Shown here: one piece after another, positions 5,566 to 5,883 of the stretch
Layout of the letters: each line of letters opens with the position of its first letter
How positions within the stretch are numbered: the first letter of the stretch is position 1
Virus record (IMG/VR): IMGVR_UViG_2737471993_000002
Length of the DNA: 64,000 nucleotides
Strand: one strand, 5' to 3'
Source: a virus
Lineage: Duplodnaviria > Heunggongvirae > Uroviricota > Caudoviricetes
Translations under genes and position numbers: made by a program
The notes under the pieces: generated by a model
What the model saw: the letters and a program-made list of their open reading frames with translations, nothing else
Told to the model about the DNA's origin: nothing
Database searches by the model: none

Positions 5566-5883
5566 ATGACCAAATTACTCGATCTCGATTCCATTCTGCC
5601 TCCGAAGAAAAGCATCAAATTTGGCGGTCAGGAATATCCCATCGTTGAAATGACGGTAGGTCTGTTCGTTTCCATCAAGCAGATGGAAGGTAAAGATCTC
5701 ATGAACATGTCTCCTGTTGAGCAAGTGACAGCTTATGCAGATCTGGTTCGTAAGGTTATCCCTTCAGTACCTGACGAAGTTCTTGAAAAACTGACTGTTC
5801 CGCAACTCCAGCAGATCTTCACCTTCGCTATGGAAGTGATTGATGAAGAAAACGAAAAAGCGGCTGGCGAAGGGGCAAAGTAA
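5566..5883 (+). CDS. tail assembly chaperone (lambda gpG-like)
   Basis: 105-aa acidic protein immediately upstream of the tape measure gene, with an overlapping alternative frame downstream. Confidence 0.55.
   Translation: MTKLLDLDSILPPKKSIKFGGQEYPIVEMTVGLFVSIKQMEGKDLMNMSPVEQVTAYADLVRKVIPSVPDEVLEKLTVPQLQQIFTFAMEVIDEENEKAAGEGAK

Follow-up and report, generated by a model that had tools for sequence, protein, structure and literature searches.

In phage lambda, the tail assembly chaperones gpG and gpGT are related by a programmed -1 frameshift at the slippery heptamer G_GGA_AAG (Levin 1993; Xu 2004, 2013, 2014; as summarised in PMC5009743). The pair is encoded between the genes for the major tail protein and the tape measure protein, G is a small acidic protein, T lies in the -1 frame and lacks a start codon of its own, and the shift takes place at the 3' end of G on the lysine codon AAG. 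Each of these traits has a probable counterpart in the pair of reading frames described here, and the lambda heptamer itself appears to be used by distant homologues of the same G/T family. The proposed slip site of the present pair differs from that of lambda, as it does not follow the X_XXY_YYZ pattern, has GCA as its P-site codon (GUA in some relatives) and is directly abutted by the stop codon of G. Nor is there any detectable sequence similarity between our G and T and the curated lambda G/T families; the only match is a weak one, at the level of fold, to proteins named as TAC.

Another type of described site is NNA_AAG, at which tRNA-Lys alone slips from AAG to AAA, as the 5' codon ends in A and cannot re-pair. 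According to the summary in PMC5009743, IS1222 uses such a site (G_CGA_AAG) and B. subtilis cdd has A_CGA_AAG (Licznar 2003, Mejlhede 1999); the same summary states that NNA_AAG sites are the more efficient, the greater the wobble capacity of the tRNA decoding NNA. For E. coli, tetramers have been ranked by their capacity to promote shifting as A_AAG >> U_UUC > ... > A_AAA, and A_AAG allows up to 5.6% shifting when combined with a pseudoknot (PMC4066793). Without a stimulator, tetramers are barely above background in E. coli (0.147% vs 0.112%; Sharma 2014, PMC4066793).

Nucleotide comparison identifies the analysed stretch of 64,000 nt (hereafter the window) as an SSU5-like phage-plasmid, the region 4700–6400 being 99.5% identical to Escherichia phage Cyrano and 80–89% identical to Salmonella phage SSU5 and to Klebsiella phage-plasmids. 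The stretch that holds G and T (5566–6233) is present in 785 plasmid records, including Yersinia pestis pMT1 as well as plasmids of Salmonella, Klebsiella, E. coli, Enterobacter, Citrobacter and Cronobacter. In every annotated GenBank/RefSeq record examined, the two ORFs are separate genes for a "hypothetical protein", and no described frameshift in SSU5, pMT1 or pHCM2 was found in the literature searched.

The gene order of the locus, which is encoded on the plus strand throughout, is tube – G – T – tape measure, and the same order is seen in distant loci. The upstream gene (4728–5510) codes for the tail tube (major tail) protein, which has a C-terminal Ig-like Big_2 domain (Pfam, E 2.9e-25, residues 176–254), matches phrog_1280 and several "major tail protein" PHROGs, and corresponds to a protein annotated as tail protein in Cyrano. 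It is followed by the G-like ORF (5566–5883, ATG to TAA), the 105 aa zero-frame product of which is the putative tail assembly chaperone. At the 3' end of G, the -1 frame has a tandem TGA (5841–5846) and is then open from 5847 up to the TGA at 6231–6233. The overlap with G amounts to 37 nt (12 codons plus 1 nt), in agreement with an earlier sequence-only reading that had described a T-like frame open from 5847 and covering the last 12 codons of G. Directly 3' of the T stop is the tape measure protein gene (6241–10812), recognised by Pfam (TMP_3, E 4.4e-27; Tape_meas_lam_C, E 6.1e-13) and as phrog_1292. The ORF list starts this gene at TTG 6220, which overlaps the end of T, whereas the Cyrano annotation points to ATG 6241, a codon that is preceded by AAGGGA and lies 8 nt after the T stop; we have adopted 6241. 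A T frame that overlaps G in -1 is present without exception in about 95 related loci and in 12 distant lineages, and such conservation shows that the arrangement is more than a matter of chance.

Elsewhere in the tail region, the 55 nt gap between the tube gene and G contains a G+C-rich hairpin (5523–5550; AGAGGCUCA-GGA-UGGGCCUCU then CUUUUAAAA) with an MFE of -16.9 kcal/mol (z -2.2), which was not flagged by the consensus scan. It looks like an intrinsic terminator, possibly a partial one, and could lower the expression of chaperone and tape measure genes relative to that of the tube gene. A 1577 aa ORF (13354–18087) that follows the tape measure gene and the distal tail genes presumably specifies a tail tip or host-specificity protein. 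On the minus strand, the region 49991–50409 gives a full-length match to the cspA thermoregulator of Rfam (RF01766; 185.7 bits at a gathering score of 78, E 2.4e-49), which suggests that a cold-shock cspA-like gene with a temperature-sensing 5' UTR is carried by the phage-plasmid.

G (11.7 kDa, pI 4.6) is assigned to phrog_893 and T to phrog_1131. Both PHROGs are of "unknown function", and phrog_1131 covers only that truncated part of T which is annotated in the databases. A profile search with G (HMMER) collected 426 relatives, all of about 100–120 aa and all of them members of phrog_893. Neither G nor T has a match in Pfam, and a PDB profile search with G retrieved nothing; just 3 of 110 relatives match Phage_TAC_7, and these matches are weak (best E 1.3e-4). 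Among the curated chaperone families (Pfam Phage_TAC_* and Phage_tail_T; PHROG "tail assembly chaperone"), there is none to which G or T belongs. The AlphaFold2 model of G (pLDDT 85.6) consists of a beta-hairpin followed by four helices, and its best match in a BFVD fold search carries the name "Tail assembly chaperone" (E 5.8e-5, TM 0.69), names in BFVD being annotations. More than 10 further TAC-named proteins, including long frameshift forms, are found among the top 50 BFVD matches, most of them with E > 0.01, and a fold search of the PDB with the same model gave nothing below E 0.8. With the T model (pLDDT 75), the BFVD search led to one uncharacterised homologue only. We consider that G and T probably act as chaperones, mainly because of their synteny and frameshift architecture, with modest support from the predicted fold.

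That T is read as a continuation of G is indicated by the pattern of variation in an alignment of the SSU5 group, which comprises 65 distinct sequences taken from phages in GenBank, plasmids in PLSDB and IMG/VR. The 80 nt (5884–5963) that separate the G stop from the earliest position at which T could start translate in the -1 frame to VISRDESG..VSIDLGFYFSRVVAHY. Variable sites in this interval are distributed over positions 1, 2 and 3 of the -1-frame codons as 13/26, 6/27 and 23/27, respectively (Fisher p 3.7e-5 for third positions vs the other two), and the only indels among the 65 sequences are two 3-nt insertions. The most conserved motif of T, IDLGF...Y (I14, D15, G17, F18, Y27), is located upstream of any conserved start codon; its residues are invariant or nearly so in homologues down to about 30% identity, and it is also kept in Rhizobium phage B1VFA, which is 35% identical. 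The stretch with this motif is predicted with confidence to be helical (pLDDT 86–94; helix H16–27). The segment that would be read after the shift extends from a GTA codon for valine to the TGA (5880–6233) and encodes 117 aa.

In the window, the T frame has no ATG, GTG or TTG before GTG 5964, and relatives have a few scattered ones which are not conserved. GTG 5964 itself is present in only 41 of the 65 sequences, and the first conserved ATGs are those at 6000 and 6009, the latter occurring in all 65. Lengths assigned to T by gene callers are scattered (74, 77, 83, 86, 89, 108, 116 and 131 aa), as is typical of an ORF that has no real start. None of the annotated versions of T in public records and gene calls, which come in at least eight lengths from 74 to 131 aa, includes the N-terminal IDLGF...Y segment. 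The combination of coding constraint and a conserved motif upstream of the starts with the lack of a conserved start and the scatter of T calls is the classical signature of a frameshift extension, and we conclude that G and T are very probably a functional G/GT frameshift pair of known kind. The sequence-only reading had proposed that a -1 frameshift joins the two frames into a gpG/gpGT-type chaperone pair ahead of the tape measure gene, and this part of it is supported by both the synteny and the coding constraint on the -1 frame; the position that it gave for the slip is a different matter.

The position can be narrowed down by comparing relatives at 5868, where the 65 sequences have C (36), T (28) or A (1). 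A T at this site turns the -1 codon 5868–5870 into TGA, as is the case in SSU5, in Y. pestis pMT1 and in relatives from Citrobacter, Enterobacter, Buttiauxella and Cronobacter. Because of this stop, the shift is confined to the overlap that is common to all relatives, 13 nt with the sequence A GGG GCA AAG TAA (5871–5883). Here, the only in-phase Z_ZZN is the tetramer A_AAG (5877–5880), which forms the core of the hexanucleotide GCA_AAG (5875–5880), our proposed slip site. The sequence A_AAG_TA (5877–5882) is invariant in 65 of 65 sequences, and this includes the synonymous G-frame third positions 5877 and 5880; further upstream, 86 of 93 G-frame third positions are variable. At the protein level, the final lysine of G is invariant as well. 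The codon 5' of AAG, which would occupy the P site, is GCA in the window and GCA or GTA in relatives. Directly 3' of the putative slip codon is the stop of G (TAA, 5881–5883; TAG in 4 of 65 relatives), a candidate kinetic stimulator of the "shifty stop" kind. An in-phase X_XXY_YYZ heptamer occurs nowhere in G, and its in-phase tetramers are limited to A_AAC, A_AAA and A_AAG. What characterises an NNA_AAG site, an in-phase A_AAG behind a codon that ends in A and cannot re-pair, is found at 5875–5880. The slip thus most likely takes place at GCA_AAG_TAA (5875–5883), on the last codon before the stop, and we judge it likely on comparative grounds that G and T are a chaperone pair with two products made from one start codon by way of a -1 shift at GCA_AAG.

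Distant members of the family shed light on the origin of this site. We compared the DNA of 11 distant lineages (L096–L105 and Rhizobium phage B1VFA, L008), each of which has a T homologue in the -1 frame; in most of them, the pair is flanked by a tube gene on its 5' side and a tape measure gene on its 3' side. At the position homologous to our site, candidate slip sites read G_GGA_AAG_TAA in L097, A_AAA_AAG_TAA in L103, G_GGA_AAC_TGA in L102 and G_GGG_AAG_TAA in L096, L100 and L101. In three other lineages the site precedes the stop by a short distance, being G_GGA_AAC one codon before it (L098), G_GGA_AAA three codons before it (L104) and G_GGA_AAG five codons before it (phage B1VFA). L099 and L105, in which G is 48% and 38% identical, have GCA_AAG_TAA and GCA_AAG_TAG, respectively, as does the window apart from the stop of the latter. 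With G_GGA_AAG and a stop at the homologous position in distant relatives, the site in the window looks like a degenerate derivative of G_GGA_AAG_stop in which the P-site codon GGA has become GCA. In the three lineages with G_GGG_AAG_TAA, the lysine codon re-pairs poorly, and it may be the glycine codon which slips.

At the DNA level, the slippery codon pair is flush with the G stop or within one codon of it in 9 of the 12 lineages sampled. A protein-level proxy is available for 135 family representatives: in 51, G ends in GK, GN, KK or KN, and 34 more have one of these pairs one residue before the end, which gives a total of 85 at or next to the end. It thus appears to be the rule in phrog_893 that the slip site directly abuts the stop or nearly does so.

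A different place for the shift had been put forward in the sequence-only reading, namely the A-rich run GAAAAAG, which is indeed located at 5854–5860. This run is shared by 62 of 65 sequences. In the window and in 36 of 65 relatives, the opening of the -1 frame begins at 5847, so that a product (...EENEK|SGWRRGKVISRD...) is possible, and the tetramer A_AAA is one of six that respond to stimulators (PMC4066793). As a heptamer, however, GAAAAAG is out of phase, as the codons of G are GAA AAA GCG, and this leaves A_AAA (5856–5859), the weakest of the effective tetramers (PMC4066793), as the only in-phase element. In the 28 of 65 relatives with the TGA at 5868–5870, a shift in the run would end after 3–4 codons, and two lineages (L010, L095) have GAAGCCGCG instead of GAAAAAG, yet all of them have kept T. 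Furthermore, the upstream part of the -1 opening (5847–5870) is lineage-specific and shows no coding constraint on the -1 frame among the 65 sequences: variation follows the G-frame third positions, first positions of -1-frame codons vary freely, even to a stop, and the encoded residues change at will (K/E, G/C, W/R, R/stop). GAAAAAG was rejected as slip site on account of its phase, the TGA in relatives and its absence from two lineages; a shift within the A-run is very improbable as the explanation of T and would at most be a minor, lineage-specific extra route. The caution attached to the original proposal, that the heptamer is not a textbook X-XXY-YYZ site and that the slip position is uncertain, was justified, and the conserved site turned out to lie at the very end of the interval that had been given for the frameshift (5847–5883).

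Expression of T might also do without any frameshift. T could be an independent small protein translated from its own start at GTG 5964, ATG 6000 or ATG 6009, and this is how all GenBank/RefSeq records present it, as the second of two separate hypothetical proteins; the presence of ATG 6009 in every sequence is compatible with such a start. We nevertheless find this very unlikely, as the 80–116 nt upstream of these codons evolve as -1-frame coding sequence and hold the most conserved motif of the family, even in the Rhizobium phage. GTG 5964 is missing from many relatives, the annotated starts are inconsistent, and no Shine-Dalgarno match was seen by eye upstream of 5964, 6000 or 6009. A start at 5964 would remove the predicted helix H16–27, and those at 6000 and 6009 lie past it. 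Alternatively, ribosomes that terminate at the TAA could start again in the -1 frame on a codon other than the canonical ones, such as ATT 5883–5885, to produce a separate T of 116 aa. Termination-reinitiation is common in phage operons, which favours this route, and the G stop does overlap the T frame (GTAATT). But inspection by eye shows that ATT is replaced by ATA or GTT in relatives, which conserves the type of residue and not a start codon. The upstream -1-frame codons AAA and GTA are invariant at synonymous G-frame sites, which suggests translation of these codons in the -1 frame or a requirement for them in slippage, and reinitiation offers no explanation for the textbook slippery heptamers that distant homologues have at exactly the same position. 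It is very unlikely that T arises in this way.

For the favoured reading, a -1 shift at GCA_AAG, we envisage the following course of events. Most ribosomes would stop at the TAA (5881–5883) and release G of 105 aa. A minority would shift by -1 at GCA_AAG (5875–5880), where the tRNA-Lys, of which E. coli has a single species, would move from AAG (5878–5880) to AAA (5877–5879). GUA for valine would then be decoded in place of UAA, and reading would continue to 6233. As GUA is the codon read next, residue 105 is a lysine with or without the shift, and the resulting GT protein would consist of G1–105 plus 117 aa (222 aa, 24.8 kDa) with the junction ...AAGEGAK|VISRDESG.... By analogy with lambda, many copies of G and few of GT may coat the tape measure protein, with the T part recruiting the tail tube protein. 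Pairs of the gpG/gpGT type are defined by a fusion that is produced at a low, fixed ratio and is indispensable for building tails, with both proteins absent from the virion. This would be a single-tRNA event of the NNA_AAG type and not a tandem slip on a heptamer, since the codon ahead of AAG, GCA or GUA, is unable to re-pair: tRNA-Ala on GCA has no re-pairing option on GGC (AGC or CGU in relatives). The sequences show the gene order, the coding conservation of the -1 frame ahead of any start codon, the 13-nt bounds of the shift zone and the invariance of A_AAG_TA; that ribosomes do shift, how often, what the stop contributes and how G and T share the work are inferred. The window also has a tRNA cluster (37840–38397, plus strand) with Asn(GTT), Tyr(GTA), Thr(TGT) and Ser(TGA), three of which were confirmed by Rfam. 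As tRNA-Lys is not included, the proposed slip would rely on tRNA-Lys of the host.

We looked for elements that could stimulate such a shift. An RNAalifold consensus contains a conserved stem of 8–10 bp (GAAUCCGG / CUCGGAUUC, 5895–5933) that begins 14 nt 3' of the slip site, with a covariation term of -0.21 and one compensatory change, in a region which also encodes conserved residues. A short hairpin (5886–5904) has three invariant pairs and no covariation. The MFE z-scores of single sequences downstream of the slip site are -0.5 and -1.05, and by these measures (MFE z-scores, RNAalifold) no significant or covarying RNA stimulator is supported at a suitable spacing downstream. Equally, there is no conserved SD sequence 10–14 nt upstream of the slip site; the SD-like AAGGGG (5870–5875) was dismissed as a conserved stimulator, being too close to the slip site (1 nt) and variable at 5873–5874. 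Transcriptional slippage was rejected because the runs of A, three residues at the conserved site and five at 5855–5859, are not long enough. The stop codon is the sole conserved neighbour of the site, and neither an RNA stimulator nor an SD sequence is supported, which leads us to infer that the adjacent, slowly decoded stop supplies the pause, similar to a "shifty stop".

Frameshifting at "shifty stops" was reportedly described by Weiss in 1987, and its most familiar examples are +1 sites, among them prfB CUU_UGA; Listeria phage PSA has +1 shifts at the 3' ends of its cps and tsh genes. What these have in common with the site in the window is a shift-prone codon in the P site and a slowly decoded stop in the A site, the best-known direction of shifting being +1 there and -1 here. 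It is the conserved flush position of the stop that suggests a role for it as a stimulator in the window. The sites of IS1222 and cdd resemble ours in that tRNA-Lys alone would slip from AAG to AAA behind a codon which ends in A and cannot re-pair. Their 5' codon is CGA, read by an inosine tRNA, and that of the window is GCA. In E. coli, GCA and GUA are read by tRNAs with cmo5U34, which are broad wobblers, and this fits the rule that wobble at NNA promotes shifting. Both IS1222 and cdd have a stimulator, either a downstream structure or an upstream SD, unlike the window site, for which no stimulator besides the adjacent stop was identified. The contexts differ too, as ours is a phage tail module, IS1222 an IS element and cdd a cellular gene.

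The mechanism is the one expected for a conserved chaperone, and thus holds little surprise for specialists; its sole mildly unusual feature is a site that is no heptamer and is flush with the stop. Very probably a G/GT pair of a known kind, it carries no such annotation in hundreds of phage-plasmid records. Its locus is widespread, and is annotated everywhere as two hypothetical proteins with arbitrary starts for T. Recognition of G/GT corrects the annotation of two PHROG families of "unknown function" and provides a defined product of 222 aa as a search target. A natural case from a phage, in which an NNA_AAG site that is no heptamer directly abuts a stop, is gained as well and is useful for frameshift predictors, programs that search for motifs of three or four bases and take account of how far away the stop is (PMC10885494).

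A further idea, which we put forward tentatively and consider possible though rather unlikely, is that the G:GT ratio in phrog_893 is set by a stop-codon-dependent -1 slip in the P site instead of by a heptamer with an RNA structure. In most lineages nothing separates the slip codon from the stop, so that release-factor-mediated termination and slippage of tRNA-Lys would be direct competitors. If this is true, the SSU5 branch, with its GCA_AAG_UAA, shows that the tandem heptamer is dispensable, and the amount of GT, and with it the assembly of tails, would follow changes in the activity of release factors and in the host's translational state.
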